NCBI GenBank assembly: GCA_965222115.1
Contig: CBDCTJ010000007.1
Coordinates: 2,452,691-2,516,690, forward strand
Source of the DNA: Planctomycetota bacterium
GTDB taxonomy: Bacteria; Planctomycetota; PLA2; JAEUHO01
Length of the DNA stretch: 64,000 bases
Direction: 5' to 3'
The notes under the pieces were generated by a model that made no database searches, was not told the DNA's origin, and saw only the letters and a program-made list of their open reading frames with translations. The position numbers were made by a program, and so were the translations under genes. This document shows, in pieces, positions 125 through 18,803 of the stretch; position 1 is the stretch's first letter; each line of letters begins with the position of its first letter.

Positions 125-475
125 TCACGACTCCAACGCATTGACAAACGCGATAAACAATGCGACCGACGCAAACAAGCCGAAGATACCAATGCCAAAT
201 GCCACGCGCCGCGATAGCCATCTTGACGTGCTGCTCCCCGACAAAACATAGAGTAGTCCGCTCGCTGCGAACATAAAGAGGCAGATATACGCGAGCGTCC
301 GAATGAGCCTCGTGTCGGGCCTTGGGCCCCAGCTGCCCATATTGCTCATGCCTTGGGCCCAAAGGAAGGCGGTGACGCCAAACAACGCCATCAATAGGGG
401 CACTGTAATGATTGCGACGCCGATCCACGCGCGATTGCGTCGCTTCTTCCTGGAGATTCGATTGGAACGAGACAC
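125..475 (-). CDS. small integral membrane protein, unknown function
   Basis: 116-aa ORF abutting the stop of the 478..2934 gene on the same strand; three hydrophobic segments (IGVAIITVPLLMALFGVTAFLWA, LAYICLFMFAASGLLYVL, FGIGIFGLFASVALFIAFV); no recognisable family. Confidence 0.4.
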   Translation of the reverse strand: MSRSNRISRKKRRNRAWIGVAIITVPLLMALFGVTAFLWAQGMSNMGSWGPRPDTRLIRTLAYICLFMFAASGLLYVLSGSSTSRWLSRRVAFGIGIFGLFASVALFIAFVNALES

Positions 476-477
476 CG

Positions 478-2934
478 TTAGTCGTCCGATTGCTCTGTAA
501 GTGCTATTTCCACATGTTCACCGGGGCGTCCGTTGGCACTTCCTTCGAAGGGCTTGCCCTTAATCTCACAGTAGATGGATATGGGCCATGTTCCGGGCGG
601 TATGTCGAGTATCTCGAATGACCGCTTTGATGTGTTCCACTTAACTCGAAAGGAGACTTCCGCTTCATACTCGCTGAAGTTTGGTCCCAGCGGTCCACCA
701 GGGAGAGATACGAAATGCTCCTCAATATCGGCCAATGAATGGCCATCCGGCGCAATCAACTGCCCGCGAATGGAGTTCGCCAGATGGGTGTCAATGTGAA
801 CCATGTCTGTACTCGGCGTGATGCCTAGCTTGTATCCGCCGCGCCCGCCTGAAAGTCGAAGGACGCACACATTGAACTTCCCGGTGGGGGACACCTCATT
901 GAATGTGGCTACGCCATCCCGATTGATGGGCGCACGTCGAAAGATGGAGAAGCTTCCCACCTGCTGCAGGTATGCCATCTTTCCCCGATCATCCACATTC
1001 CAAGGGTGAAACCGGACGTTGAGTTCGATGGGCAATGCGCCTCGATCCAGCATCAGAGTTACGTTTTTTGCGCCTGCGTCGGCCTTAGCACCTTTTCGGA
1101 CACCGTCCGCCGAGAGCGTGTATTGCCCTTTGCGAAGTCCGACTAATACGAATCGGCCATCGCTGTCGGTACGCGTACCCGGATAACTCACGGTGTAGCC
1201 ATCACTAAGCGACGCCTCCGAATCCCGAGTCGGTACGGTGCCTCCATAGGGCATGCCGTTCCCGATACCCCTAACCCAGATTCCCTTCACCGGCTTGCCA
1301 TCCCTGTCAATTATGCGTCCTGAAATCTGATGGGCGAGGGGCAAGACGAATCGATTTTCGCCGCGATTCCACACTTCCTGAAACACGGGCAACACATCCT
1401 TTCGTCGTGGCGGGGGCTGTATGTCAATGCGGTAGTCCCTATCCGGTAGTAGGCCCCGAAGCTCGGCGACGCCCTCCTCATTTGTCGTGGCTTCACTCTG
1501 TACGTCGGTGCTTCCGCGCGGGAACGTCGCGAAGACTCTAGCGCCTGCGATCGCAATCCCTTGTTCATCTATCACGGTGACCGAGTGCTCTTCGCCTCGC
1601 CTTAGTTCGATGATGAGCTTCTCTTGCCCCGGTGTTGCCCGCAACGAATCGATGCGGCAAAAGGGGCCTGGCGCACCAGATACATCAACTACGTAGGGCG
1701 TGTTGGCAAGACCCTCGAACCGAAACTGCCCCGTGCTATCACTCACACACTCGTGCGAACTGTAGCGCTTCAGTTTTGATGGCTTCCATGCAAGTAACTT
1801 CTCCTCGATTTCGGGAAACGGCATTAGTGCGCGAACCTTGACACCCGGTATGGGGTCGCCGTCAATGGTCTGAACGACGCCGACCAGTTCACATTGTTTC
1901 TTGCGCTGAATCACGGCTTGTGCCAATGGAAATGGGCCGGCAATCTGCTCACCCAGCCCACGCTCCGGGTCGGCGTGTAGGAAGACGAAGTACTTCGCAC
2001 CGGCTACATGCTCGATTCGAGTTGGCGTATTGAACGGGGAGACTCCAAACCATGCGGAACTTGAGTGATGGCTCGACAGAGAGATCAGCGACCCCGAAGA
2101 CGCGACAAGCTGACCGTCTATATCCAGCGTTTGGATCCGAAACACGACCTTGTCCCCAGGTCGCGCGCGCATCATCTGGACGGCAACGTCTTGAGTGCCC
2201 GCTTCTGCCGAAACGTGCCCAGACCAAGCGCCTTCCTTTGACGAACCTAGAACAACAAACGACTTCTTTCCTGACTCTAGCGCGTAAATCGAAAATCTCC
2301 CATCCCCATTCACGTCAAAGTCGGGCCTTGGAACACCTTGCGCTTCTGGCTCTATGAGAATGTCACTCGCATGCAGTCCGGGGGGTAAATCAATGTGACC
2401 ATGAATCGTCAGTCCCGGGGAGAGCGCAACACGAAGCTCGAACTGACCCGGCGAGAGCTTTCTTGGCGTACCTGTATCCCTCTTCGCGATGTAGCGACGT
2501 GCATTGACGAAGAATGAGTCCACACTCGCCCTAACATTGCTAACTCGAAATCGACCCAAAGCGTCCGTCTGGCCCGTGGAGATCCGATAGATAGACTCTC
2601 TCTTAGCGATGCCAACCGATACATGCTGACTGCTGATGGGCGACTTATTGTCCTCGTCTACGAGATATATCGTAACGGTATCCCGGTCGTCACTCGTGGC
2701 GGCCTCTTGCTTCGGCGCGGGTATGGCTTGGCGATTCGATCCGCGAAGCGCCGCTCCCCCGACTTCGACGCGTCTTGTCTTTGTAGTCCTTGATTCGCTA
2801 TTGCGATCTTTGACAGGCGTCGATTCTCCACTTCGACGGTGTCCCGTTGCAAGCACCATCACTCCGATGGTCAACGCAAGTCCAACAACACCGATTACGA
2901 GCAGTCCGTTGCGATTCGTTCCATGTCTATTCAC
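478..2934 (-). CDS. large membrane-anchored protein with repeated carboxypeptidase-regulatory-like (CarboxypepD_reg) beta-sandwich domains
   Basis: 818-aa ORF; N-terminal TM/signal anchor LLVIGVVGLALTIGVMVLA; recurring units of the type TDALGRFRVSNV, GDGRFSIYALESGKK, STGQFRFEGL, SDGRFVLVGLRKGQYTLSA; same repeat architecture as the C-terminal part of the divergent 3727..7062 gene. Confidence 0.55.
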   Translation of the reverse strand: MNRHGTNRNGLLVIGVVGLALTIGVMVLATGHRRSGESTPVKDRNSESRTTKTRRVEVGGAALRGSNRQAIPAPKQEAATSDDRDTVTIYLVDEDNKSPISSQHVSVGIAKRESIYRISTGQTDALGRFRVSNVRASVDSFFVNARRYIAKRDTGTPRKLSPGQFELRVALSPGLTIHGHIDLPPGLHASDILIEPEAQGVPRPDFDVNGDGRFSIYALESGKKSFVVLGSSKEGAWSGHVSAEAGTQDVAVQMMRARPGDKVVFRIQTLDIDGQLVASSGSLISLSSHHSSSAWFGVSPFNTPTRIEHVAGAKYFVFLHADPERGLGEQIAGPFPLAQAVIQRKKQCELVGVVQTIDGDPIPGVKVRALMPFPEIEEKLLAWKPSKLKRYSSHECVSDSTGQFRFEGLANTPYVVDVSGAPGPFCRIDSLRATPGQEKLIIELRRGEEHSVTVIDEQGIAIAGARVFATFPRGSTDVQSEATTNEEGVAELRGLLPDRDYRIDIQPPPRRKDVLPVFQEVWNRGENRFVLPLAHQISGRIIDRDGKPVKGIWVRGIGNGMPYGGTVPTRDSEASLSDGYTVSYPGTRTDSDGRFVLVGLRKGQYTLSADGVRKGAKADAGAKNVTLMLDRGALPIELNVRFHPWNVDDRGKMAYLQQVGSFSIFRRAPINRDGVATFNEVSPTGKFNVCVLRLSGGRGGYKLGITPSTDMVHIDTHLANSIRGQLIAPDGHSLADIEEHFVSLPGGPLGPNFSEYEAEVSFRVKWNTSKRSFEILDIPPGTWPISIYCEIKGKPFEGSANGRPGEHVEIALTEQSDD

Positions 2935-3395
2935 GGTCAGAACAGTAACACGTGCTCATGTTGTGGGCATTGAATTCTGGACGATACAGTGTCGAGACAA
3001 TCCACACCTTACCTTTAATGTGAGCCGCGATTCTTTCCAACGCATTGAAGATCATTGTCCCATGCTCCATATTGCCTATCCATTTGGCGAACAACTACGT
3101 CATGGGGCAGGTTTGAAACGCTTGTTCTTGTTTGTCGAAATGCGTGAAATTTGCCCGTACACCGTATCTTTACGAGCGTTCGACTTGGATGGGTATTCAC
3201 ATCGTCAATGCGATGCACGAACGACTGATCGCGCATATGTGCGCGCGCTGGCATGGCGGTGTCGAGCGTTTCACCGTTCTCACTAAGCACGAGAGCGATG
3301 GAAAAGCGATTGTAGGGGACGCCGCTCATCGACAACGTCTGAGTAGCGGCACCGTTTTCTGACGCCGAAAGCGTCTTGTGAACCAAAAACCGATC

Positions 3396-3533
3396 TTACG
3401 TCGTTGATGGATCCCCATTCTCATCGGCATAGGCGTCGAGCCGCACGCCGCCTCCTCCACCGCCACAGGCGGTGAGTGAGAGCGCAGCGAGCAATACAGG
3501 TAGATAGCAAAGCAGGTTATTTGAGGGATACAT
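3396..3533 (-). CDS. possible small lipoprotein or lipoprotein gene fragment (45 aa)
   Basis: Hand-translated ORF not in the supplied track (<60 aa): MYPSNNLLCYLPVLLAALSLTACGGGGGGVRLDAYADENGDPSTT; signal peptide plus lipobox LTAC followed by a Gly run; lies in the divergent intergenic region. Could be a chance ORF. Confidence 0.2.
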   Translation of the reverse strand: MYPSNNLLCYLPVLLAALSLTACGGGGGGVRLDAYADENGDPSTT

Positions 3534-3726
3534 TGCAGGTCTCCTTGACCCCATCCCCCGGGGTCAGGAGCTACATAGGATTTGCCCGCTGCGGATGGCG
3601 CGAAACTCGGCGAAATTCTTCCGCGCGTCAGCCCTGTCCCCATTTTTAGCGGCTTCGAGTTGCTCCGACCCGCGAAATCCGAAATTTTCCGTACGATGCC
3701 GACCGAAACACGTCTGTACGGGTGTC

Positions 3727-6700
3727 ATGTCAATGGATGCCGAACTACTTGAGCGCTACCGCACGCAGGGGGATCGCGATGCGTTGAACGAACTCTTGGG
3801 GCGTCACTATCCCCACGTGTATCAAGTGGCATTGCGGCTTGTGCACAACGAGTTCGACGCGCGCGATGTTGCGCAGTCCGTGTTCCTCAAGGCGATTCGA
3901 AGTGTTCATCAGGTTCGTAATCCCCGCGCGTTTCGTTCGTGGTTACTCAAGATCACGGTGAATGAGGTGCGTGGGGGGTGGCGCAAGCAGCAACGCGCAC
4001 CGCATCTGGAACAGTTGTTCGGCGAGATCGTGAGGACACAACCCGCCACACAGTCCAAGCAAGCAAGTCGTCGTGAATTCGAGTTGGCGCTTGAGAATAC
4101 TCTCGAATCAATGCCCCCTGAGCTCAAGGCACCTCTTGTGCTGCGCTATTACCAGGCGCTCTCTTTGTCGGAAATCGCGGAGATCTTGGAACTTCCTAAG
4201 TCCACCGCTCAGTTTCGTCTTCAGCGAGGCGTAAGGCGCCTTAGGCGCCGATTCGGTCGTAAACGACTTTCGCTCATGGCGCCATACCTGTCCGAGATAT
4301 CGATTCCTGGAACCGCTTCGGCACTCGTCACGGTGGGAGGGCTTTTCTGTATGAAAACAATCATGATTGGCGTTGGAGCCGTCGCCGTGATCCTTGGCGT
4401 CCTTCTCTTCCTGCTTAAAGCCGAGCCGCCTTCGTTTTACGCGCCATCAACGGCCAAAGGCGAAACCGATTCCCACGAATCGGACGAGGATCGTGACTCT
4501 CCACCAAAGCTAACCGCGAGCACAACGTCGGAGACTACCAGTCAGGAATCGAGTGAGACGATTGCTGACGTCGTTACTACAACGGGCCCTGGTGTGATTG
4601 GAGGCGTGGTCTTGGCGGAGGCTAGGGGACATCCCGTTTCGCACGCGCGTGTGGTGGTTCGATACGCACGCCACCACCGCAACAACTGGGTTACTGACGA
4701 TCACCCCAACGCTTGTGCCAATGTGTACTCAACCGACCGCAACGGTGAGTTTCGATGCCACGAGCTTCCTGTCGACCGCGTTTACGACCTACATGTGTCG
4801 CATCCAGACTTTGGTTATGTCGAACGTTGTGGCGTCACATTGAGCGTGTCGAGTCAACACGTCAATATGGGTGTTGTGGAGTTGCCCGAGCAGCGTGCAC
4901 TTCGTGGCATTGTTCGAGATGTGAACGGCACACCCGTCGCCGGCGTGAACATCTATGCAGGTGACTACGATCGAGCACTGCCCATGCTCTCGCCCACGCT
5001 CTCGTCAACGCTTCGACGGGGCGTGACGACGACAAGTGACCGACACGGGAAGTTCACCCTGCACGGGCTTGCGCCGGGATTCCATCGATTGCTCGCCATG
5101 CATCCGGGGTACGCAAGCACGGTTCGATCGAAGGTTTTCGTGCCACGCACCGCCAAGCCAGCGCACATAGATGTCACACTGAACGCTGTGAACGTTACAT
5201 CGGGCCTGGTATTGGACGAGCAAAAGCACCCCATCGCAAACGCCCTGATCATCGTGAACATCGATGAATTTTTTGAGCGAGGCTCGCGCGGATTTTCGTA
5301 TCGACATCACTGGTCGCGCATTCAGTCGGACGAACGAGGCATATGGCGCGTGACTGATTTCCCCGCCGATGGGCCCTATACCGTGTCGATTCGGATCGAG
5401 AAAGAGGGATATCAACCGAAGGATGTTGAGTACATTGGGCTGGGCTCCAAGTTAATGCCGGTTACCCTCACATCGAGTGATACGAAATTGGGCACCGTTG
5501 TGTCCGGAACCATTGTAGACGATCGAGGCGCACTTGTCGATGCGTCCAACGGCCAAGTGTGGCTTGTTTCCGTAGATAAACCGCGTATCGCGGGCACGTT
5601 TGATTCACTCACAAGTCAATATTCGTTCGAGGGCATAGCGCCGGGTCTCTATTCGATTCATGCGGATCTCTTGGGCTATCGGCGTGGCATCAAGAGTGAC
5701 GTGCGCGTGGCGTCCAGCCCGCTACCTGACATCCGCGTCTCGGTGTTGCGTGGACTCACATTGAATGGTCGAATACTCGATGCCAAGACCGATGAGCCCA
5801 TTCCCGGTGCACAGCTAATCTACCGTGGATTTACGATACACGCCGACACCATGGGTGCCTACGAACTCGGGGGACTGTCGAGCGGACGAACTACAGTCGG
5901 TGCAATCGGGCTGCGCGCTGCCGGTTACTTCGATGCATCGCCGTCATACTTCGCACCAAAGGACGCGCGTCATCACACACTTGACTTCAAGATGATTCCG
6001 GTAGACGAGGGCATCACAGTTCTCGGCAAGATAGTGGATGCATTTGGCAAGCCGATCGCGGGTGCCCACGTGCGCTACAAGACGGTCGACGGTGTGGTTC
6101 GTTCAGTTTCTGCATTTTCGAAGCGTGATGGATCGTTCGAGTTCCCGCCTCAAAAGGCCGATGCTCTCGAATCGACAGTCACGTTGATGGTGACCCACTC
6201 GCGATTTGCACCGTTGGAAGTTGGCGTGCCGAAGGCGGAAGCGCACCTACCGAACACGGTAGTGCTCAATCCAGGCAGATCGGTTGCGGGCACGGTCAAG
6301 GACTCAAGGGGCAAGCGTGTCTCTCACGCGCATGTAACCGCCGTGATCGGTCGAGTGCCCACGCGCCTCAAGGAAGGTGCGTTCGATGATCGCGAGGTGG
6401 CCAGCGCCCGTGAGATTGGGAGCGTCCTAGCCGACGCACGCGGAGACTTCGTAATTGAGCATCTGCCTAGCGAGGCCCTCACCCTGTTGGTCACCGGCAC
6501 CCGTGTGCGTTATACGATGGGGAAGGACCATATCGGACATGTGATTGCCAAGGGTGCCTCCGATGTCGTCGGTGTCTCGGTTCCGATTGAGCGCGAGCAG
6601 ATTGCGGAAGGCGTTGTGGTCTATGGCGATGGAACCCCTGCCCATGACGTGTCCTTACGTGCGTCGTCTACATTTGCGTGGACGCCCGTCCGGGAGGACG

Positions 6701-7062
6701 GGTCCTTTCGCATCGATGGCATCTACGGGCGCGGCGCTCAGCTCAAACTGAACGGAGTTACTGTTCGCCCGCGCGTCGCGCCCATCGAAGTCGCCGATCA
6801 GCCCATGCGCATAGTCGTGGATCGCTGCGGAATCGTTCATGGAACTGTGGGACTATCGGATCGCATACGTGCCGGTGCCGACGTTGTGATCGAGCGTTCC
6901 GATGGTGTGCATGAGCGAGCACCCTTGCAACGAACGGGCGCGTTTCGGTTCACGCGTGTGTTGCCGGGCGACTACGTCCTGCGCCTGGGCCAAATCGAAC
7001 TCGCCGTCAAGGTCAAGGCCGGCGAAACGACCGATCTGGGCGCACTGCGCGTCGAGAAATAG
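3727..7062 (+). CDS. ECF (sigma-70 family) sigma factor fused to a transmembrane segment and a large extracytoplasmic CarboxypepD_reg-repeat domain
   Basis: N-terminal ~190 aa carry sigma-70 region 2 (HVYQVALRLVHNEFDARDVAQSVFLKAIRS, RAFRSWLLKITVNEV) and region 4 (LPPELKAPLVLRYYQALSLSEIAEILELPKSTAQFRLQRGVRRLRRRF); hydrophobic helix LVTVGGLFCMKTIMIGVGAVAVILGVLLFLL; then ~850 aa with at least six units such as GIVRDVNGTPVAGVNIYAG...SDRHGKFTLHGLAPGFHRL and GKIVDAFGKPIAGAHVRYK...SKRDGSFEFP. Start placed at ATG 3727 (MSMDAELLERY); the track ORF opens at 3595. Confidence 0.7.
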   Translation: MSMDAELLERYRTQGDRDALNELLGRHYPHVYQVALRLVHNEFDARDVAQSVFLKAIRSVHQVRNPRAFRSWLLKITVNEVRGGWRKQQRAPHLEQLFGEIVRTQPATQSKQASRREFELALENTLESMPPELKAPLVLRYYQALSLSEIAEILELPKSTAQFRLQRGVRRLRRRFGRKRLSLMAPYLSEISIPGTASALVTVGGLFCMKTIMIGVGAVAVILGVLLFLLKAEPPSFYAPSTAKGETDSHESDEDRDSPPKLTASTTSETTSQESSETIADVVTTTGPGVIGGVVLAEARGHPVSHARVVVRYARHHRNNWVTDDHPNACANVYSTDRNGEFRCHELPVDRVYDLHVSHPDFGYVERCGVTLSVSSQHVNMGVVELPEQRALRGIVRDVNGTPVAGVNIYAGDYDRALPMLSPTLSSTLRRGVTTTSDRHGKFTLHGLAPGFHRLLAMHPGYASTVRSKVFVPRTAKPAHIDVTLNAVNVTSGLVLDEQKHPIANALIIVNIDEFFERGSRGFSYRHHWSRIQSDERGIWRVTDFPADGPYTVSIRIEKEGYQPKDVEYIGLGSKLMPVTLTSSDTKLGTVVSGTIVDDRGALVDASNGQVWLVSVDKPRIAGTFDSLTSQYSFEGIAPGLYSIHADLLGYRRGIKSDVRVASSPLPDIRVSVLRGLTLNGRILDAKTDEPIPGAQLIYRGFTIHADTMGAYELGGLSSGRTTVGAIGLRAAGYFDASPSYFAPKDARHHTLDFKMIPVDEGITVLGKIVDAFGKPIAGAHVRYKTVDGVVRSVSAFSKRDGSFEFPPQKADALESTVTLMVTHSRFAPLEVGVPKAEAHLPNTVVLNPGRSVAGTVKDSRGKRVSHAHVTAVIGRVPTRLKEGAFDDREVASAREIGSVLADARGDFVIEHLPSEALTLLVTGTRVRYTMGKDHIGHVIAKGASDVVGVSVPIEREQIAEGVVVYGDGTPAHDVSLRASSTFAWTPVREDGSFRIDGIYGRGAQLKLNGVTVRPRVAPIEVADQPMRIVVDRCGIVHGTVGLSDRIRAGADVVIERSDGVHERAPLQRTGAFRFTRVLPGDYVLRLGQIELAVKVKAGETTDLGALRVEK

Positions 7063-7182: not shown

Positions 7183-8859
7183 TTGGCGATGGAGCCCGAA
7201 GACGTCCGCTACCTCGCTGCTTTTGACAGCTTCCGCTTACCGCAACACCTCACCGACGTATTGGTGATCGGCACGGGCGTGGCGGGCTACTCAGCGGCGC
7301 TTTGGGCCGCACGTGGCGGCGCGCGCGTCATGGTGTTGGCCAAAGGCGAGCCGGGCGAAAGCAATACCGCCTACGCGCAGGGAGGCATCGCGGCGGTGCT
7401 CGCCGATGCCAAGAGCCGCAGTGATTCTCCCGAGGCTCATGCCGCCGACACAATACGCGTAGGGCACGGCCTGTGCGACGCTACGGTTGTCGAACGCGTC
7501 GCGCGCGAAGCGGCGGATCGCGTCGCGCTGCTTCAGGAACTCGGTGCGGCGTTTGACCTCAATGAAAAGGGCGTGTTGGCACGCGGACTCGAAGGTGGAC
7601 ATAGTCGGCCACGTATTCTTCATGCGCGCGGTGATGCAACCGGCGCCGAGATTCGCGATGTGTTGGCCAATGCCGTGACGTCCCACAAGAATGTAACGCG
7701 CTGGGGCGGTGCATTTGTTGTCGATCTTTTGAGCGACGACGACGGGCGCTGTCGCGGTGCGCTTGTGTTGTCGCGCGGGCATTTGCGTTGCGTTTGGGCG
7801 AGTACGGTCGTTTTAGCAGCGGGTGGCTACGGCCAGATCTATCAAGAGACGAGTAATTATCCCGGTGCATGTGGCGATGGGGTTGCGGCCGCGTTCCGTG
7901 CTGGCTGTGCAGTGCGTGATATGGAGTTCATTCAGTTTCATCCCACCACGCTCTATCTCGCGGGTGTACCGCGTATGCTGATCACCGAAGCGGTTCGCGG
8001 TGAAGGTGCACACATCGTGGATGGTAATGGGGAACGATTCCTAAAAGACGTTCACGAGCAGGCCGAACTTGCCCCGCGCGATGTGCTTTCGCGATCCATT
8101 CTCACTCGCTTGGCGAATCCGGAACATGGCGGGGTGTTTCTCGATCTGCGCCATTTGGATACTGAGAAGATGACGAAGCGCTTTCCGGGTGTGGCACGTT
8201 CGTGTGCGGCGCATGGATTGGATATTGGCGAGCATCGCATTCCCATTCGACCTGCCGCGCACTACACGATTGGCGGTGTGATTGCCGACATTGAGGGGCG
8301 AACGGCAATTCCTGGCCTCCTGGCGTGTGGTGAAGTGTCGTCAACGGGATTGCATGGCGCCAATCGACTCGCTAGCAACTCACTCTTAGAGGGCCTCGTT
8401 GCAGGGCGTCATGCGGGGGAACACGCGGTTCGCGATACGCGCGGAAAGAACGTTCGACCCGTAAAGATTCGAAGCGATGTCGAGCGACCGCGCGAAGGGC
8501 GTATCGATGTGCGCGACCTGCGGATTTCGCTCAAGGCGCTCACATGGCGTGATGTTGGAATTGTTCGAAATGGCGCCGAATTGATGGGGGCAGAAGGCGC
8601 CATCACTGCGTGGGAACGATTCGCGCACCGGGTGGGGAGCGAGGAAGACACGCGTCGCCTGACGCTACTCAATATGCTCTGTGTGGCGCGCCTGGCGAGC
8701 AAAGCGGCCCACATGCGCGAAGAAAGTCGTGGCACACACTTCCGTCTGGATTACAAGAAGCGGGACGACAAGGCGTGGCTTGGACATATCGTTCACGTGC
8801 GCGGCGAAGGAACACGATTTGAACGAATGCAGTCAGCAGACGACGGAAGCCGTGCATGA
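7183..8859 (+). CDS. nadB: L-aspartate oxidase
   Basis: FAD-binding N-terminus DVLVIGTGVAGYSAALWAARGG; SHRPRILHARGDATGAEI, GDGVAAAFRAGCAVRDMEFIQFHPTTLY, LITEAVRGEGAHIVD...ELAPRDVLSRSI, PIRPAAHYTIGGV and GLHGANRLASNSLLEGLV match recalled E. coli NadB motifs closely. Confidence 0.9.
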   Translation: MAMEPEDVRYLAAFDSFRLPQHLTDVLVIGTGVAGYSAALWAARGGARVMVLAKGEPGESNTAYAQGGIAAVLADAKSRSDSPEAHAADTIRVGHGLCDATVVERVAREAADRVALLQELGAAFDLNEKGVLARGLEGGHSRPRILHARGDATGAEIRDVLANAVTSHKNVTRWGGAFVVDLLSDDDGRCRGALVLSRGHLRCVWASTVVLAAGGYGQIYQETSNYPGACGDGVAAAFRAGCAVRDMEFIQFHPTTLYLAGVPRMLITEAVRGEGAHIVDGNGERFLKDVHEQAELAPRDVLSRSILTRLANPEHGGVFLDLRHLDTEKMTKRFPGVARSCAAHGLDIGEHRIPIRPAAHYTIGGVIADIEGRTAIPGLLACGEVSSTGLHGANRLASNSLLEGLVAGRHAGEHAVRDTRGKNVRPVKIRSDVERPREGRIDVRDLRISLKALTWRDVGIVRNGAELMGAEGAITAWERFAHRVGSEEDTRRLTLLNMLCVARLASKAAHMREESRGTHFRLDYKKRDDKAWLGHIVHVRGEGTRFERMQSADDGSRA

Positions 8860-10184
8860 AAATTGATCGCGGACCCAAGGTTCGGCGCGGTGGGGGAGAT
8901 CGCGAGAAAGCGATCCTCGTGGGACTCAAGTTGCCAGGCGATCCTGTGTCGTATCAAAAGCCCCTTGATGAACTCGAACGACTGGCCGATACTGCCGGCG
9001 CCGACACCGTAGACAAAATTGTGCAGTCGCGTGACCGTCCCGATGCCAAGACCTATATTGGGAAGGGCAAAGCCGAGGAAATCGGTGAGTTGCTGGTCGC
9101 CACGGGCGCAGATCTCGTGATCGTCGATCACGACTTGAGTCCGTCGCAGGCACGCAACCTTGAGAAGGTCATCAAAGGACGCGTGATTGACCGCACCGAG
9201 TTGATTTTGGACATTTTCGTGCGTCGTGCGAGTAGTGCGATGGCCAAGGCGCAAGTTGAGTTGGCGCAGATGCAATACAGTTTGCCTCGCCTAAAGCGCT
9301 TGTGGACGCACCTCAATCGGGAGGTGGCAGGCGGACGCGTAGGGATTGGTGTTCGTGGGCCGGGTGAAAAGCAGATTGAGACTGACCGGCGCCTCGTGCG
9401 GAGGCGAATTCGAGACCTGCAACGTGGACTGAAGGAGATGCAAAAGCATCGCGTGCTCCAAACCAAAGCACGCGACAAGTTCTTTACGATCTGTTTGGTG
9501 GGTTACACCAACGCGGGTAAGAGCACCCTGTTGCGTGCATTGACCGGCGCCGACGTGTTCATTCAAGATCGGCTGTTTGCAACGCTCGATACCACCACGC
9601 GGGCCTGGGAAATTGCACCGGGCCGCAAGGTATTCTTGTCGGACACGATTGGTTTCATCCGCGATCTGCCCCACCATCTCGTGAGTAGTTTCCTGGCAAC
9701 GCTCGAAGAAGCGCGGCGCGCGGATCTCCTTTTGCACGTGGTGGATGTCGCCGATCCGGATGCACTGGAACACGTCGATGTCGTTCAAGAGGCGCTGTAT
9801 TCGATTGGTGCCAGTGCGGTGCCGCGCATTACGGTGCTCAACAAGATCGATCGTCAGCGTGATCCCGTAACGCTAAGGTTGCTCGAGGAGCAACGCGCGT
9901 CGTGCGTGCGCACCAGCGCACAAACGGGCCGCGGCATAGACGAGCTACGAGACGCGGTGTATGGCTACGTCACGCGACACCACGTCAACCTCACCCTTTC
10001 GGTCTCCGCAGGCCGGGGCAAGTTGCTCACGCAAATACGGGAGTGGGCCGAAGTTGACGCCATTCGCTATGACGGCGACGACGCCATCCTCGACGTCCGC
10101 ATCGACCGTCCCCATGCCCGCCGCCTCCAGGAGATGGGCGTCCGCGTCCTTGAAGGTGCGGAGCAAATCGCCCTCTCCGAGTAG
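8856..10184 (+). CDS. hflX: GTPase HflX
   Basis: HflX N-domain (ELERLADTAGADTV...) followed by G-domain with P-loop GYTNAGKSTLLRALTG and DTIGFIRDLPHHLV; start overlaps nadB stop (ATGA). Confidence 0.9.
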   Translation: MKIDRGPKVRRGGGDREKAILVGLKLPGDPVSYQKPLDELERLADTAGADTVDKIVQSRDRPDAKTYIGKGKAEEIGELLVATGADLVIVDHDLSPSQARNLEKVIKGRVIDRTELILDIFVRRASSAMAKAQVELAQMQYSLPRLKRLWTHLNREVAGGRVGIGVRGPGEKQIETDRRLVRRRIRDLQRGLKEMQKHRVLQTKARDKFFTICLVGYTNAGKSTLLRALTGADVFIQDRLFATLDTTTRAWEIAPGRKVFLSDTIGFIRDLPHHLVSSFLATLEEARRADLLLHVVDVADPDALEHVDVVQEALYSIGASAVPRITVLNKIDRQRDPVTLRLLEEQRASCVRTSAQTGRGIDELRDAVYGYVTRHHVNLTLSVSAGRGKLLTQIREWAEVDAIRYDGDDAILDVRIDRPHARRLQEMGVRVLEGAEQIALSE

Positions 10185-10295: not shown

Positions 10296-13200
10296 TTAGG
10301 TGGCGGCGGGGGCGAGTTCGGAGTCGCCCTCGACCTTGTGGGTGAGTGCCCAGGGAACGAGCATAACGAGCCCGTAGACGAAGGCGATAGCACCAAACAC
10401 CAGCCACCATGCGAGCCACACAAGGAAGATCACCGGGCTGAGGATCAGGAGCAGCGGATTCTCCAGGCACTTGGCGAGCATGCCCTTGGGCGGCGCGAAG
10501 CCCTTGATCTTCTCCCACAGCCACGGCAAGTAGAGCAGCAGCGGCGACGAGATGGCGATCGTCGAATAGGTACCGATGATCGAACCCAGGATCAGGAGGA
10601 ACGCGAAGCCTTCCAGCACGTTTCGTTGCCCGATGTTGAACGCAAAGAGCGCCAAACACACGAGCAAGAACGTGGCCGACGTCTTGATGGTTCGCGCCAA
10701 CGTCTGATTGATCGACAGGTTGATCAATGGTGCGTCAATATCGGGTCGCTTGCCGCGGTTCTCACGAATACGGTCAAAGATGACCACCGTGTCATTGACC
10801 GAATACCCAACGAGCGTCAGGAACGCGGCCACCATTGCCAGGTTGATCTTGGCATCCACGATTCCGAGCGTATTGGCGATTGCCACCAAGCCGAGCGTAA
10901 TGGCGACGTCGTGGAAGAGACACAACACCGCCGCAAAGCCCATCGCCCGCGAACGGAATCGAATCGCGATGTACACAATGATGCCCAGCAACGACAACAC
11001 GAGTGCCAGCATGGCGTCGTTCTTCAGTCGCTGTGCGACGCTCGAACCAATCACGTCCGTCGAACGGAATGGTGCGCTCAAGCCGAAGTTTTCTTCACTG
11101 AGCCCAGCGTTTCCTACGTCCTTTGCAATCTCGGCGCGGAACTCAGGCCCGTCCAAGTACGCATCCAGTCGATTTTGAAGATCGTGCCAGTCGCCGTCGA
11201 GCGAGTCGCCGTTTGCGGCTGTGGTCTTAATCCAAATGTCAAAGGCGTTGAGTGCAGCAATCGGCTGTTTCGCCGGGCGTACCACCACCGCGCGTTTGAG
11301 TCCCTGGACTTCACTTGGAAGCTTGGGAACGTCTTTCCCATCCTCGAACTGCCAATGCGGAAACTTGGTCTGAAGTAGTGTTTCAAGCACCGTCGGTTTG
11401 ATGAGCTTGTCCGCATCACGAAATCCGATCTGCAAGTGCCATCCGCCATCGACCGCCGCGAGCGCAGGGTCGGCGCCGGCAGCGTCTTCATCGGCGGCCT
11501 TGGGGTGTTCGTATTTGGTGGGGGCCTCGAGAGACGAGTTCGGCATGAGGCGATCGTGGAGCACGCCCTCGATGTACTTCATGAACGCGCGCGACTGGAG
11601 CTCCTCGCTCAACTCGCTTTGCTTCTCATCGAACAGGCGCTGCACCTTAATTTCCGTGGAGCGCCCTTCGGTGCCCACGGCAAGAACTTGGGCACTTGGA
11701 AAGGGCCCAACATTCAGTGTGACGGGGCGCAGCTTGTCTTCGCCCTTCTCGTCTTTGTACTCCTCCTGAATCGTGACTTCGCGGGCCTCGGAGAGCGCCT
11801 GCTTTACATCGTCGACGGATGTTGTCTTGTGAAATGCGGCCTGCGCCTTGTAGCCACCCGTGAAGTCAACGTCATACAGCGTGTACTTATCGGTCCCGGC
11901 AAAGATAACCAACCCGGTAACCACAGCGGCTACGGAGATAGGCAGGAACAGTCGACGAAGCCCAATCCAGTTGGTGCGCGGTGGCACACCGGTGCCGAGC
12001 ATGCCGAGCTTCTTGAGCCAACCCTTGTGCAACATCCACTCAACGATGGTACGCGTTACGAAGATGGCCGTGAACATAGAGACCATCAGGCCGATGGCCA
12101 GCGTGATTGCGAATCCACGCACGGGACCCGAACCAAATTTGAACAGGAAGATGGCCGTAATGATGGACGTTACGTTGGCGTCGATGATGGCGCTCAGTGC
12201 GCGGTCATAGCCTTCGGACACCGCGCGGCGCAGGCTCCGGCCGCCGCGTAACTCCTCACGAATACGCTCGTTAATCAGAATATTCGCGTCCACCGCCATA
12301 CCCACGGTCAACACAATGCCGGCGATACCCGGCAGTGTGAGGACTGCCTGGAAGAACGCCAAAAAGCCCACCAGCAACACAAGGTTGAGCAGCAGCGCGA
12401 TGTTGGCCACCATGCCTGTGGCGCGGTAGTAGATGAACATGAACACAAGCACGAGCAGGAAAGCCACGATGATCGAAAGCAGGCCGCGATTTCGCGACTC
12501 ACCCGCAAGCGAGGCGCCGATTCGCGTCTGCGCTTCCAGCGTGGGCTGTACTTTCAGCGAACCGGTTTGAAGCACTGTAGCAAGCTGCTCGGCTTCCTCC
12601 TGTGTCGACCGGCCAAGCGTGATTTGCACGTTGTCTCGTAGCGTTTCCTGAATCGTGGGTGCGGAGAAGTACTCCTTGTTCAGGATGATGGCCATGGGGA
12701 GCTTCTTGTTCCGACCCGTCCACTCGGCAAACACATTTTGATATTCGTTCTTGACGTTGTAGAGCACGACCCAGCCGGGATTGCTCATATCGGCTGAAGG
12801 CGCCGCAACTGGATTGACCAGGATACGGCCATCAAAGAAATAGCGGTCGCCAGGCCCGCCGGTTTCTTCAAGTACGTGAAACTCGTTGACGTTTGATCCT
12901 GGTGCCCCTTTGGACTTGACGACTCGAAAGCGTTTGTCGGACGGCTTGTATTCGATGCCCTTGTCGCGCGCTGCCTGCCAGAGTTCGACTTCCTTCTTCT
13001 TGAATGCCTCGAATCTTCGTTCGGCGGCTTCGTCTGATTCCGTGGGCGAGAGTTTCGGCCAGACTCCTTTACGCTCGGGGATTTGATCTTCCCTATTTCC
13101 GGCTCTCGCGAGGTACGTGCTGTCCGGCAATACCTCGATTTGAAACCGCAGGTCACCGAGTTGCGTAACGAGGCCCGCAATGTAGTCGGCTCGTGACGCC

Positions 13201-13511
13201 GCGCCCGACGGCAGTGAAATCTCGAACTTGTTGTCACCCAGCGGCGTGATGTTGGTCTCCGCCAACCCGGATGCGTTGATACGTTGGTCGATGACCTTGA
13301 TCGTATCCGTGACGACCTTGACCGGATCGGTCGTAGGTTCAATATCTCCACGCGCAATCGCGCGTTCCAAATCGAGTGAAAATCGTAGGGTCGTTCCACC
13401 CTCCAAGTCTTGCCCGAGTTTGATTCCCGAGGCCAGGAAGGCCCAAATCAAGATGCCGGTGACCGCGAGGATGACCCAGAACCGGCCCTTTAGATCGGAT
13501 TGTTCAATCAT
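10296..13511 (-). CDS. secDF: protein translocase subunit SecDF (fused SecD-SecF)
   Basis: ~1070-aa multi-TM protein with large periplasmic loops and paired 6-TM bundles (FAITLAIGLMVSMFTAIFVTR; NTLGIVDAKINLAMVAAFLTLVGYSVNDTVVIFDRIRE); downstream of yajC. Start placed at ATG 13511 (MIEQSDLKGRF) with GGAG 7 nt upstream. Confidence 0.85.
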   Translation of the reverse strand: MIEQSDLKGRFWVILAVTGILIWAFLASGIKLGQDLEGGTTLRFSLDLERAIARGDIEPTTDPVKVVTDTIKVIDQRINASGLAETNITPLGDNKFEISLPSGAASRADYIAGLVTQLGDLRFQIEVLPDSTYLARAGNREDQIPERKGVWPKLSPTESDEAAERRFEAFKKKEVELWQAARDKGIEYKPSDKRFRVVKSKGAPGSNVNEFHVLEETGGPGDRYFFDGRILVNPVAAPSADMSNPGWVVLYNVKNEYQNVFAEWTGRNKKLPMAIILNKEYFSAPTIQETLRDNVQITLGRSTQEEAEQLATVLQTGSLKVQPTLEAQTRIGASLAGESRNRGLLSIIVAFLLVLVFMFIYYRATGMVANIALLLNLVLLVGFLAFFQAVLTLPGIAGIVLTVGMAVDANILINERIREELRGGRSLRRAVSEGYDRALSAIIDANVTSIITAIFLFKFGSGPVRGFAITLAIGLMVSMFTAIFVTRTIVEWMLHKGWLKKLGMLGTGVPPRTNWIGLRRLFLPISVAAVVTGLVIFAGTDKYTLYDVDFTGGYKAQAAFHKTTSVDDVKQALSEAREVTIQEEYKDEKGEDKLRPVTLNVGPFPSAQVLAVGTEGRSTEIKVQRLFDEKQSELSEELQSRAFMKYIEGVLHDRLMPNSSLEAPTKYEHPKAADEDAAGADPALAAVDGGWHLQIGFRDADKLIKPTVLETLLQTKFPHWQFEDGKDVPKLPSEVQGLKRAVVVRPAKQPIAALNAFDIWIKTTAANGDSLDGDWHDLQNRLDAYLDGPEFRAEIAKDVGNAGLSEENFGLSAPFRSTDVIGSSVAQRLKNDAMLALVLSLLGIIVYIAIRFRSRAMGFAAVLCLFHDVAITLGLVAIANTLGIVDAKINLAMVAAFLTLVGYSVNDTVVIFDRIRENRGKRPDIDAPLINLSINQTLARTIKTSATFLLVCLALFAFNIGQRNVLEGFAFLLILGSIIGTYSTIAISSPLLLYLPWLWEKIKGFAPPKGMLAKCLENPLLLILSPVIFLVWLAWWLVFGAIAFVYGLVMLVPWALTHKVEGDSELAPAAT

Positions 13512-13746
13512 GATGAAACTCCATCTGCCGCTTCCGTGCGTGCAGACCATGGACGGCGGGCCGAAGCCCGACTTCGAAAGAAAGCTCTCGTAGGTTCACT
13601 GAACGACGTTCAGATTGAGATCACGCTTACGAGAATGCGCCCAACGCACACACAGCATTCGTGCATGCGGTTCGAGTCTGCCTTGGCTAGCGCGACGTGC
13701 CGCGTCGAGGCAGTTGGGGACGGGCTAAGCCCCCAATGCATGTGGA

Positions 13747-16490: not shown

Positions 16491-18803
16491 GTGAAGCAAT
16501 GGACGCTGCGGGCCGGCATCCTCCTCTGTGTGGGCCTCGCCCTGGCCGATTTGCAACCAATTCCCATCGGTGACCCACCGCCTCCCAGGCTGATTCTTGA
16601 CGTTTCCGCAAGCATGGGTCCCGCCGCTCAAGAGCATCCGGATGACATAAAATACGGTTATCCAGTAACTTATGTCGCATCCAGGGCGGCGGATATGCGC
16701 CTAGGGCAAGCCCCGCCCCAAGTAGGAACGGGCGCGACGCGGCTCGGAGAGGCCATTCGAAGGGCGCCCGAGGGTACAACCTTGATTTTGGTGAGCGACG
16801 GATTGGATACCGATGGCGATGCCATCATGGCGTCCCGTGACCACCACCAAAAAGGCGGTCGCGTCTTCACACATCCGCCCAAATCCAGCGTTGCAGACGT
16901 GGGTTTGACCTCGCTGCGGGTGATTTCCGAGCGGCCTCGGGCCACATTCGAAGCCGAGCTTCATGCGACGACTTCCGGCGAAGCCCGACTGACACTTCAG
17001 CGTGAAGACCGAATTGCATTGGAGCGGACCCTCTCATTCGTGGCGGGCGAGACGAGGACCGTTGAGTTGGTGGATACCGTGCCCGTTGCCCGGGATGCGC
17101 CGCGAGCGCGCTACCGCGTTCGTCTAACGGTTGGCGCTGAGACGCCCAATGACATCGCCGAAAACGACGAGCTTAACGTTGTGCTTCAAGCCGGGACGCG
17201 ACGCGCCCTGTGGTGGGGCGATCCCAATCTCGATCGCGATGCGTTGGCCCAGCGATCGGATGTCGCCATTCAGGTGGTCGACGTGTTGCGAGCCGCCGAA
17301 GTACGCGCCGCCGATGTTCTCGTAGTCTCGAACATCCCCTACTACGAGATTCGAGGACACACCGACGTCATCGAGTCATTTGTGGCGCGCGGCGGAAGCC
17401 TGCTCATGCTTGGAGGGCCCGACGCTTATGCAGGAGGTGGTTGGGGAGGGACGCACCTCGAGGAGCGTCTGTCGGCGCTGCAATCCAAGCGATCCGATCG
17501 AACCGCATTGGCACTCGTTCTTGCGCTTGATCACAGCGGGAGTATGGCGGGTGGCGCACTCCAGCGATTACGCGAATCGGTGCGGACCGCGGTTGCAGGG
17601 CTCGCACCCGATGAACGGCTTGCGGTCTTGCCTTTCTCTTCCGGTCGCGATGCCACCCTGTTGACGCCGGGGTTCGTTTCGCGCGACGACACGGCGGCGG
17701 TTGAAACGTTGCTGCATGCGCTAGATGGATTGGAGGCGCGAGGGAGCACGCAGTTACTTCGTGCCATACAAGCGTCGGCGGCTCACCTGCGAGATGTGGA
17801 TGCACGCGAGCGACGGGTGGTACTGCTCAGCGATGGCGATCCCGACCACGAGTTGAGTGAATCGGAACTCGAAGCCACACGGAAGATCTTGGTTGAAGAG
17901 CAAATCGGGTTCGGCGCACTTGTCGTGGGCATGAAACGCGTGGCCGATCGCCTTGTGACGTTGTCGTCCAATCCCAAGGATGTGGTGTTGCTGCGCCAGC
18001 CCGGCGCCTTTCCCGATTCGCTCCGACGACAGTTGCAACGTCGTCGTCGCAGTAAGGAACGTGTCAATCCTCCCATCACGCTAGTGATCGATGACGCTAC
18101 TCGTTGTCCCATCGATGCGAAGCTTACGATTCACTTTGCACATCGTCTGAGCGTCCATCCACAAGCCATTCGCATTGCACGGTTGACCGCCGGCCGCGGT
18201 CGAGAGTTGCTTCCCTTTGCCGCAGAGCGGCGGGTGGGGGCGGGCACCGTCGTGTCGGTGGCCTGGGGCCCTGAAGGTGAGCGCTCCATAGACCACGCAC
18301 GCGCCACGGACGCGTTGCTGCCGCTGGTCGTTCGCCTTGCCGCGCGCTCGGATCGCGGTCTCGCGGCCGAGATCAATGGAAACGAACTCATGGTTGTGGC
18401 GCCATTTGCAGCGAGCCTCGGTGTCTTGTCGCTGCTAGATGGCGAAGAACGGCCTGTGGGCGAGCTAATTGAACGTGAACCTGGCATGTTTGTTGGACCC
18501 ATCCCGCTCGCCGACGGACTGTCGATTCGCCATGGGGACGCCCGGCACACACTGCGTCTGCCGGCGCGGCCCGCGCCCGAATTTCGTCGCATTGGCACCG
18601 ACGAGATATCGCTCATGCGCATTGCGGATGCCGGTGGCGGGCGCCTACTGCAACGTGGGCAGTCGCCGCCACGCGCCGAGACGTTTCGCGGTTCCTCGTG
18701 GGCGCCGTGGTTTCTTCTCGCGGCGCTATTGCTCTTCGTGTGGGAACGTCACGAGTCAAACACCGCCAAACGTATGGCGCTTGGTGATGCGCTTGCCGGA
18801 TGA
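16491..18803 (+). CDS. von Willebrand factor A (VWA) domain protein, two VWA/MIDAS modules, signal peptide and C-terminal TM
   Basis: N-terminal signal sequence LRAGILLCVGLALA; MIDAS-like DxSxS motifs LILDVSASMG and LALDHSGSMAG; C-terminal hydrophobic WAPWFLLAALLLFVW; GTG start. Confidence 0.7.
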   Translation: MKQWTLRAGILLCVGLALADLQPIPIGDPPPPRLILDVSASMGPAAQEHPDDIKYGYPVTYVASRAADMRLGQAPPQVGTGATRLGEAIRRAPEGTTLILVSDGLDTDGDAIMASRDHHQKGGRVFTHPPKSSVADVGLTSLRVISERPRATFEAELHATTSGEARLTLQREDRIALERTLSFVAGETRTVELVDTVPVARDAPRARYRVRLTVGAETPNDIAENDELNVVLQAGTRRALWWGDPNLDRDALAQRSDVAIQVVDVLRAAEVRAADVLVVSNIPYYEIRGHTDVIESFVARGGSLLMLGGPDAYAGGGWGGTHLEERLSALQSKRSDRTALALVLALDHSGSMAGGALQRLRESVRTAVAGLAPDERLAVLPFSSGRDATLLTPGFVSRDDTAAVETLLHALDGLEARGSTQLLRAIQASAAHLRDVDARERRVVLLSDGDPDHELSESELEATRKILVEEQIGFGALVVGMKRVADRLVTLSSNPKDVVLLRQPGAFPDSLRRQLQRRRRSKERVNPPITLVIDDATRCPIDAKLTIHFAHRLSVHPQAIRIARLTAGRGRELLPFAAERRVGAGTVVSVAWGPEGERSIDHARATDALLPLVVRLAARSDRGLAAEINGNELMVVAPFAASLGVLSLLDGEERPVGELIEREPGMFVGPIPLADGLSIRHGDARHTLRLPARPAPEFRRIGTDEISLMRIADAGGGRLLQRGQSPPRAETFRGSSWAPWFLLAALLLFVWERHESNTAKRMALGDALAG

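Follow-up and report, generated by a model that had tools for sequence, protein, structure and literature searches.

How a sigma factor that is itself a membrane protein is kept off, and how it is switched on, when its chain carries no anti-sigma module is the question raised by a protein family represented here by gene A, which was analyzed in a 64-kb stretch of a Planctomycetota contig (CBDCTJ010000007.1, assembly GCA_965222115.1; hereafter the window, in which all coordinates are counted from the first nucleotide). Gene A (3727..7062, stop codon included, plus strand) encodes a 1111-aa membrane-tethered extracytoplasmic function (ECF) sigma factor, as recognized from its open reading frame (ORF), its called protein and its domain content. 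The initial annotation of this locus had described one polypeptide with a sigma domain, a transmembrane (TM) helix and a long extracytoplasmic region, and this arrangement is conserved: all 32 relatives scanned have the sigma and CarboxypepD_reg parts, and 31 of them have the hydrophobic segment. Gene A is a genuine, conserved, single-pass membrane-tethered ECF sigma factor.

Sigma domain and membrane topology of gene A

The reading frame of gene A is open without interruption from 3595 to 7062 on the plus strand in the ORF list. The true start is ATG 3727, because the exact 1111-aa product beginning there is the called protein P0001 in NCBI/ENA, all homologues of gene A align from the Met encoded at this position, and the 44 codons upstream (3595-3726) have a non-coding score (-0.30 log-odds per codon; gene A itself, +0.19 to +0.24). 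GC content and codon score are even across the junction between the sigma domain and the TM helix.

Sigma region 2 (3727..3996, aa 1-90, plus strand, as are all parts of gene A) was identified by a match to Pfam Sigma70_r2 (PF04542, E 7.5e-14), and sigma region 4 with its helix-turn-helix (4054..4260, aa 110-178) by matches to Sigma70_r4_2 (PF08281, E 2.2e-11) and to PF04545 (E 2.2e-8). In an AlphaFold2 model for which a 45-sequence alignment was the input, the two regions had predicted local distance difference test (pLDDT) values of 92-98 and 93-98, respectively, and were separated by a disordered linker of 19 residues; their identity across the family is ~59% and ~62%. Additionally, the NCBIfam model TIGR02937 (sigma70-ECF) scored 87.8 bits on gene A, against a cut-off of 42.9, and residues 3-175 align with the solved structures of AlgU, SigW, SigE and RpoE, which are its closest in sequence. 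No match to Sigma70_r3 or r1 was found in gene A by Pfam at E<=0.1, which fits the layout of the ECF (group 4) sigma factors. The hidden Markov model searches that the initial annotation had named as a check thus returned an N-terminus with sigma-70 regions 2 and 4, and gene A is an ECF (group 4) sigma-70 factor with complete regions 2 and 4, a short linker between them, and neither region 1.1 nor region 3.

Behind sigma region 4 lies a cytoplasmic juxtamembrane segment of ~33 residues (4261..4359, aa 179-211), which has no Pfam match and contains one short helix (aa 182-189) in the AlphaFold2 model; residues P186 and G205 of this segment are invariant in an alignment with seven close homologues. 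It is followed by a single TM helix (4360..4416, aa 212-230), the sole hydropathy peak of the protein (Kyte-Doolittle 2.97), so that TM prediction and structure prediction, both of which had been recommended for this locus, agree on one TM helix lying within a predicted helix of aa 197-231. The next segment (4417..4587, aa 231-287) is an acidic, Ser/Thr/Pro-rich linker of low complexity, with pLDDT values below 50 and a family identity of 14%, and is predicted to be periplasmic. The flanks of the TM helix, with basic residues on the N-terminal side and the acidic stretch on the C-terminal side, together with the need of a sigma domain to be in the cytoplasm in order to function, place the repeat array in the periplasm. 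The part of the protein C-terminal of the TM helix comprises 881 aa.

The remainder of the protein (4588..7059, aa 288-1111) consists of approximately nine CarboxypepD_reg (transthyretin-like) beta-sandwich modules. Pfam PF13620 matched this array in eight stretches with 180 bits, against a cut-off of 32.3, and the full-length AlphaFold model is all-beta from aa 289 to 1107, with pLDDT values of 70-90 and modules of 80-100 residues each. The initial annotation was right about the type of the repeats, and its count of at least six units was an underestimate. The modules were delimited by means of the AlphaFold model and the recurring motif GxVxDxxGxP, as jackhmmer runs on gene A and the neighboring gene B alone bounded the repeats poorly. 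A Foldseek search returned only tandem beta-sandwich proteins, such as pilins, TIE proteins and macroglobulin-domain arrays, and no enzyme fold was among its matches.

The locus had also been described as a sigma/anti-sigma device in one polypeptide, and this part of the description was not borne out. No anti-sigma domain was matched in gene A by Pfam or NCBIfam models, and the AlphaFold2 model shows no extra fold between sigma region 4 and the TM helix. As the juxtamembrane segment, with its one short helix, is also too short to hold an anti-sigma domain, these results indicate that gene A is a tethered sigma factor and not a sigma/anti-sigma hybrid. Furthermore, the earlier remark that no anti-sigma gene is adjacent holds, in the sense of a recognizable one, for gene A and for 10 related loci.

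Conservation of the sigma-TM-CarboxypepD_reg architecture

Seven full-length homologues from independent assemblies, with 28-32% identity to gene A, are collinear with it over the whole chain, sigma domain and all modules included. When the sigma and TM part was used as query, an exhaustive HMMER search yielded 29 clusters (50% identity) at E<=1e-30, mostly of 900-1180 aa. Such an exhaustive search was required, as a word-indexed search with the sigma part alone returned only ordinary short ECF sigma factors and missed the family. A scan of a genome collection gave one true relative (L001). Each of the 32 nearest relatives by sigma domain contained Sigma70_r2, Sigma70_r4 and CarboxypepD_reg, and in 31 of them a hydrophobic peak lies at aa 200-255, right after sigma region 4, with constant spacing between the two. 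Within the close family, identity is ~60% in sigma regions 2 and 4 and 19-33% in the ectodomain modules, and the TM helix and the linkers are poorly conserved.

A PDZ domain was identified at the extreme C-terminus of the ectodomain in nine of the 32 relatives, including P0057, P0062 (aa 967-1033 of 1049) and P0068, and is absent from gene A itself. Its position at the far end of the rod fits a ligand-contacting tip. In addition, CarboxypepD_reg arrays accompany more distant sigma domains (P0009, P0013 and P0023), which show 29-31% identity to gene A in best local alignments that cover the sigma region only (16-18% of the query).

A conserved promoter-like element upstream of gene A

A comparison of upstream regions revealed an element common to the family, which consists of a T-rich or GGAAT/GAAAT stretch, CGTACG, exactly 15 variable nucleotides, C(A/G)TCT and, after another 6-10 nt, the start codon. 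Its copy before gene A, termed P1 (3668..3716, plus strand), comprises an upstream part GAAAT..GAAATTTT, a -35-like CGTACG (3690-3695), a 15-nt spacer and a -10-like CGTCTG (3711-3716), and ends 10 nt before ATG 3727. The element was found in register in all 11 family loci compared, which come from independent assemblies. Nine of these have the exact CGTACG; of the other two, L011 reads CGGACG, and the low-GC locus L012 has CGTTTA ... CATTTA at the equivalent positions. Three loci are annotated with a start that lies a few codons too far upstream, and there the motif takes up its usual register relative to an MKTD-type start. The exact core CGTAC-N16-CRTCT occurs in the window only at P1. The frequency of the strict core in the window is 2.3e-5 per position; a strict core this rare, standing at one fixed place in each locus, is not explained by chance.

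An autoregulated promoter with an AAC-containing -35 and a CGT-containing -10 element is listed as a hallmark of ECF sigma factors (PMC8103513). The family element can be read as a -35 GTAC, a 16-nt spacer and a -10 CGTC or CATC, with GTAC standing where the ECF hallmark has GAAC, and thus looks like an ECF promoter in form and spacing. No sigma-70-type promoter was found in the intergenic region between genes B and A. The canonical pattern AAC-N15-19-CGT, which was also tried, gave three loose matches upstream of gene A and none in five upstream regions of homologues, and was dropped in favor of the family motif. The start codons of the family genes have no Shine-Dalgarno-like sequence in the preceding 6-10 nt, and this, together with the short distance from element to start codon, predicts a leaderless or near-leaderless mRNA. 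Taken together, the simplest reading of these features is that the element is an ECF-type self-promoter, which would be read by the sigma domain of gene A itself in positive autoregulation. The search for ECF-type -35 and -10 elements upstream of both large genes, which had been recommended initially, yielded a promoter-like element before gene A, with GTAC in place of GAAC; before gene B the family motif is lacking.

A second copy of the element, P2 (3137..3182, plus strand), was identified in the same intergenic region and consists of GTCGAAATGCGTGAAATTTGCC (GAAAT..GAAATTT), CGTACA (3156-3161), a 15-nt spacer and CGTTCG (3177-3182). A search of the window and 12 loci with a 51-nt position-weight matrix recovered nothing beyond the training sites and was too strict to detect P2, which was then found by a consensus search. 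P2 is one of only three matches to CGTAC-N16-C[AG]T in the window, and its upstream half is common to P1. It ends 6 nt before the ATG of orf57 (3189..3362, plus strand), a 57-aa reading frame whose exact sequence is the called protein P0196 in NCBI/ENA and whose codon score (0.128) is within the coding range. No homologue of orf57 was found among protein families, in the PDB or in the related loci. Judging by P2, orf57 is a candidate second target of the gene A sigma factor, and it is possible that its product is a small modulator of that factor.

Two ORFs on the minus strand (3396..3554 and 3015..3386) lie antisense to orf57 in one frame and are split by a single TAA (3396-3398). The former opens with a lipoprotein-like signal, LLAALSLTAC-GGGGGG (lipobox LSLTAC). 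Both have low codon scores (0.003 and 0.041, respectively), are not called genes and have no Pfam match, and the stretch 3015-3554 probably represents spurious ORFs or a decayed gene.

Gene B and its relation to gene A

Gene B (478..2934, minus strand) encodes an 818-aa protein of approximately eight beta-sandwich modules, identified by ORF, Pfam and hydropathy analyses. As had been noted initially, a single hydrophobic segment lies near its N-terminus (aa 11-29, nt 2848-2904), CarboxypepD_reg repeats are present, with three significant Pfam stretches (E 1.7e-24; 86.4 bits, against a cut-off of 32.3), and a sigma domain is absent. Because the charges flanking the hydrophobic segment are ambiguous, it may be either a signal-anchor or a long signal peptide. 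Genes A and B lie on opposite strands 792 bp apart, with the called orf57 between them, so that gene B is divergent from orf57 and, contrary to the description of a divergent pair, not directly from gene A.

The term paralog, which had been applied to gene B, goes beyond the similarity found. BLASTP gave 25% identity between A and B with an E value of 3e-4, and the profile of the A family aligned with gene B by hhalign at 97.4% probability over 631 collinear columns with only 17% identity, in a setting where tandem-repeat arrays easily align collinearly. On these comparisons, the relation is one of remote homology between domain arrays and not of a recognizable duplicate. Gene B had a single distant relative in a database of 5.8 billion clusters. 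Moreover, the neighbors of the sigma fusion all differ among ten related loci, and nine of these ten have no B-like gene. The only B-like neighbor, in locus L007 (4801-7767), lies two genes downstream of the sigma fusion P0007 and encodes a sigma-less protein of 988 aa, in which a hydrophobic segment near the N-terminus is combined with CarboxypepD_reg domains; it resembles gene B at the level of domains only. The family motif was absent upstream of gene B in our motif searches. As far as these comparisons reach, gene B encodes a distinct envelope protein with remote homology to gene A and is not its obligate partner.

Proposed mechanism and alternative explanations

The best explanation of these results, to which we assign a probability of roughly 55%, is that gene A encodes a conserved tethered ECF sigma factor that is made as a pro-sigma, freed by regulated proteolysis and autoregulated through its own promoter. 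The full-length protein would be the pro-sigma, held off most promoters by its membrane tether. A periplasmic cue acting on the ectodomain might lead to trimming of the ectodomain, for which the disordered acidic linker is a plausible site, and intramembrane cleavage, as for IutY, RseA and RsiW, could then liberate a sigma fragment of ~20-25 kDa. The freed sigma factor would read P1, giving positive autoregulation from a leaderless or near-leaderless mRNA, and P2 would drive orf57; these last steps are somewhat better grounded than the proteolytic ones.

Several observations weigh against this explanation. The window yielded no gene for a site-1 or site-2 protease, and a conserved cleavage motif was not found either. 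With no anti-sigma domain, there is no evident reason for the tethered form to be inactive, and a directly fused sigma factor could be degraded after site-2 cleavage instead of being released. The motif occurred only before sigma genes and orf57, with no wider regulon in ~400 kb of sequence searched on both strands. A metagenome scan with AATCCGTCGTACG-N15-CATCT gave 25 matches, all of them due to chance and mostly from one repeated human-gut sequence, and none was upstream of a sigma gene. In addition, the core TCGTACGA is palindromic, so that an operator or repressor site is also possible.

The main rival explanation is that the sigma factor is never released. In regulators such as ToxR and CadC, a single TM helix joins a DNA-targeting module in the cytoplasm to a sensor in the periplasm within one chain; these regulators are activators of the winged-helix type and act together with the housekeeping holoenzyme, whereas the tethered module of gene A is a sigma subunit. 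In a comparable way, full-length gene A protein might recruit RNA polymerase at the membrane, with its activity switched by the state of the ectodomain (ligand or oligomerization) and with its own gene as the nearest target. The lack of both an anti-sigma domain and a conserved cleavage motif speaks for this alternative, the juxtamembrane linker, in which Pro186 and Gly205 are conserved, could act as a flexible tether, and a promoter directly before a membrane-protein gene, in leaderless geometry, would keep the locus near the membrane. As gene A has no inhibitory module, activity in the tethered state is likelier here than for other fused ECF sigma factors. It is nevertheless a possibility on the doubtful side: 33 residues are a short tether for a sigma factor buried in the holoenzyme, a literature search found no precedent for a sigma factor that is active while tethered, and IutY, the one characterized fused ECF sigma factor, is freed by proteolysis (PMC8999054). 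Rather unlikely is that the upstream element is not the promoter of this sigma factor at all, being instead an operator for a dimeric repressor or a promoter of another sigma factor. Palindromes, ATCGTACGAT and TCGTACGA, do occur in several loci; yet the C(A/G)TC half-site lies outside the palindrome and still stands at a fixed distance of 15 nt in each of the 11 loci, and the start codon likewise always follows after 6-10 nt, which together with the fixed spacing is typical of a bipartite promoter, and the intergenic region offers no sigma-70-type promoter instead.

The fusion might also be fortuitous, a duplicated sigma2-sigma4 cassette having landed before an envelope gene with a TM segment and CarboxypepD_reg modules, in which case the ectodomain would be structural or adhesive and not a sensor. 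Planctomycetal ECF extensions are of multiple origins, and an insertion mechanism has been proposed for them (Pinto and da Fonseca 2020, PMC7671368). Sigma-less proteins of TM-plus-repeat type exist, namely gene B and the 988-aa protein of L007, and the distant sigma domains of P0009, P0013 and P0023 also carry CarboxypepD_reg arrays. The fusion is old and maintained, however: all 32 relatives have the same type of extension at a constant spacing between sigma region 4 and the TM helix, and in the seven close homologues the array stays collinear from end to end. It is therefore unlikely that the fusion is purely accidental and unselected, and the scenario accounts for an origin and not for a present function; as an origin of a fusion that was later kept as a unit, insertion fits well. 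A cooperation of A and B, with gene B as a decoy or co-receptor for the gene A ectodomain as initially suggested, seems very unlikely. The two genes are close together, are the only ones with CarboxypepD_reg arrays among the large ORFs checked in the window, and have remotely homologous, collinear arrays, and L007 has its loosely similar sigma-less protein. Against this stand the near absence of relatives of gene B, the nine of ten loci with no such neighbor, the missing family motif upstream of gene B and the low identity of 17-25%; the idea is thus left unsupported. Finally, an assembly or frameshift artefact joining separate sigma and envelope genes is effectively refuted by conservation, since the same uninterrupted architecture is found in 32 relatives from independent assemblies (NCBI, ENA, JGI and Logan), and neither GC content nor codon score shifts at the junction.

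A more far-reaching interpretation, which we regard as quite unlikely, is that of an anti-sigma-free class of sigma factors in which the membrane anchor and the beta-sandwich rod (~30 nm long by estimate, not by computation) would form an envelope ruler or mechanosensor, in some members with a PDZ domain at its tip. Contact with the outer layers, or its loss, might then gate either the release of the sigma factor or membrane-bound transcription. Through the leaderless self-promoter, the transcription, translation and membrane insertion of the sigma gene would be linked in a local positive-feedback switch, and the co-regulated 57-aa protein would be a new small modulator, e.g., a NepR-like soluble anti-sigma factor.

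Comparison with known fused ECF sigma factors

Comparative genomics has already established both ECF fusions that span the membrane and planctomycetal ECF sigma factors whose extensions are long and varied (PMC8999054, PMC7671368, PMC7826278), and gene A, a clean and testable tethered sigma factor with no anti-sigma module, will be no surprise to a specialist. Fused membrane-spanning ECF sigma factors are common in Planctomycetes and Actinobacteria, and according to reviews only IutY has a demonstrated activation mechanism. IutY of Pseudomonas putida (ECF243) is a sigma/anti-sigma hybrid activated via the proteases Prc and RseP (PMC8999054). Like gene A, it is one polypeptide that starts with an ECF sigma domain, crosses the membrane once and has its C-terminal part in the periplasm; however, IutY has a FecR-type anti-sigma domain and works with a TonB-dependent siderophore receptor, whereas gene A has no anti-sigma domain and no receptor gene alongside. 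The groups ECF48, ECF52 and ECF53 of Actinobacteria (e.g., SCO4117) also combine an ECF sigma factor with membrane spans and an extracytoplasmic domain, and proteolytic activation has been predicted for them (PMC8999054, PMC5826349). They differ from gene A in having a zinc-finger (ZAS-like) anti-sigma domain between the sigma domain and the TM segment, and a proline-rich region and a carbohydrate-binding domain outside, none of which is present in gene A. The proposed logic of an envelope cue that leads to proteolysis and a free sigma factor is shared with RpoE-RseA and SigW-RsiW, in which a separate membrane anti-sigma factor binds the sigma factor, while in gene A the sigma factor itself is the membrane protein.

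The planctomycetal ECF sigma factors with long extensions, namely the ECF57 group, whose extensions contain WD40-like repeats, and the duplicated clusters described by Pinto and da Fonseca (2020), resemble gene A in their N-terminal sigma2-sigma4 part, a very long repeat extension and the lack of an adjacent anti-sigma gene. The nearest annotated full-length homologue of gene A comes from a metagenome-assembled genome of Planctomycetota, and WD40-bearing ECF sigma factors are among the more distant matches (P0011, P0018 and P0024; sigma identity ~27-30%). The extension of ECF57 is of the WD40 type, in contrast to the CarboxypepD_reg array of gene A, to which a PDZ domain is added in some relatives. 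No WD40 match was found in gene A, nor among the 25 top-ranking of the 34 Pfam families matched by its 32 nearest relatives. In ECF57, two conserved cysteines link sigma regions 2 and 4 (PMC8999054); such a pair is lacking here, as aa 1-200 of gene A are free of Cys and the family shares no conserved Cys position. We found no literature description of an ECF family with CarboxypepD_reg arrays or of its promoter, in sources that did not extend to the supplementary group tables of the ECF classification, and nothing specific on an ECF sigma factor fused to a carboxypeptidase-regulatory-like domain or on a membrane-tethered sigma factor.

The conserved promoter, with two copies in the window, can be used directly as a reporter and also as a motif with which to search complete genomes for the regulon, which makes the question of how a bare tethered sigma factor is controlled experimentally approachable. 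For annotation, gene A should be treated as one real protein with its start at 3727, and its 818-aa neighbor should not be assumed to be a partner.

Neighboring genes

A 116-aa ORF with three predicted TM segments (125..475, minus strand; ORF list and hydropathy), for which only sub-threshold Pfam matches (DUF3040 and DUF7139) were obtained, starts 2 nt past the stop codon of gene B and is therefore probably co-transcribed with it. Downstream of gene A, inspection of the translations by eye suggested housekeeping-like genes, i.e., an L-aspartate oxidase-like gene (7183..8859), an HflX-like GTPase gene overlapping it by 4 nt (8856..10184), and, on the minus strand, a gene for a fused SecDF-like protein of 1084 aa (10296..13550).

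In the related loci, a gene for an FG-GAP repeat protein lies directly downstream of the sigma fusion in two more distant cases (L010, 3921-5741; L011, 4970-7615) and may be a partner or target specific to that subfamily; the window has no counterpart of it. Signalling genes are dense near the sigma fusion in L004 (1-3954 and 11782-15606) and L009 (6680-9060), where ECF sigma factors of the PF07638 type adjoin large Ser/Thr kinase proteins that also carry WD40 or FGE-sulfatase domains.

Further on in the window, Pfam matches identified a VWA protein (16491..18803), HEAT-repeat proteins, a protein with an adenylate/guanylate cyclase domain (40789..42966) and, on the minus strand, a TonB-dependent receptor (56474..58870).

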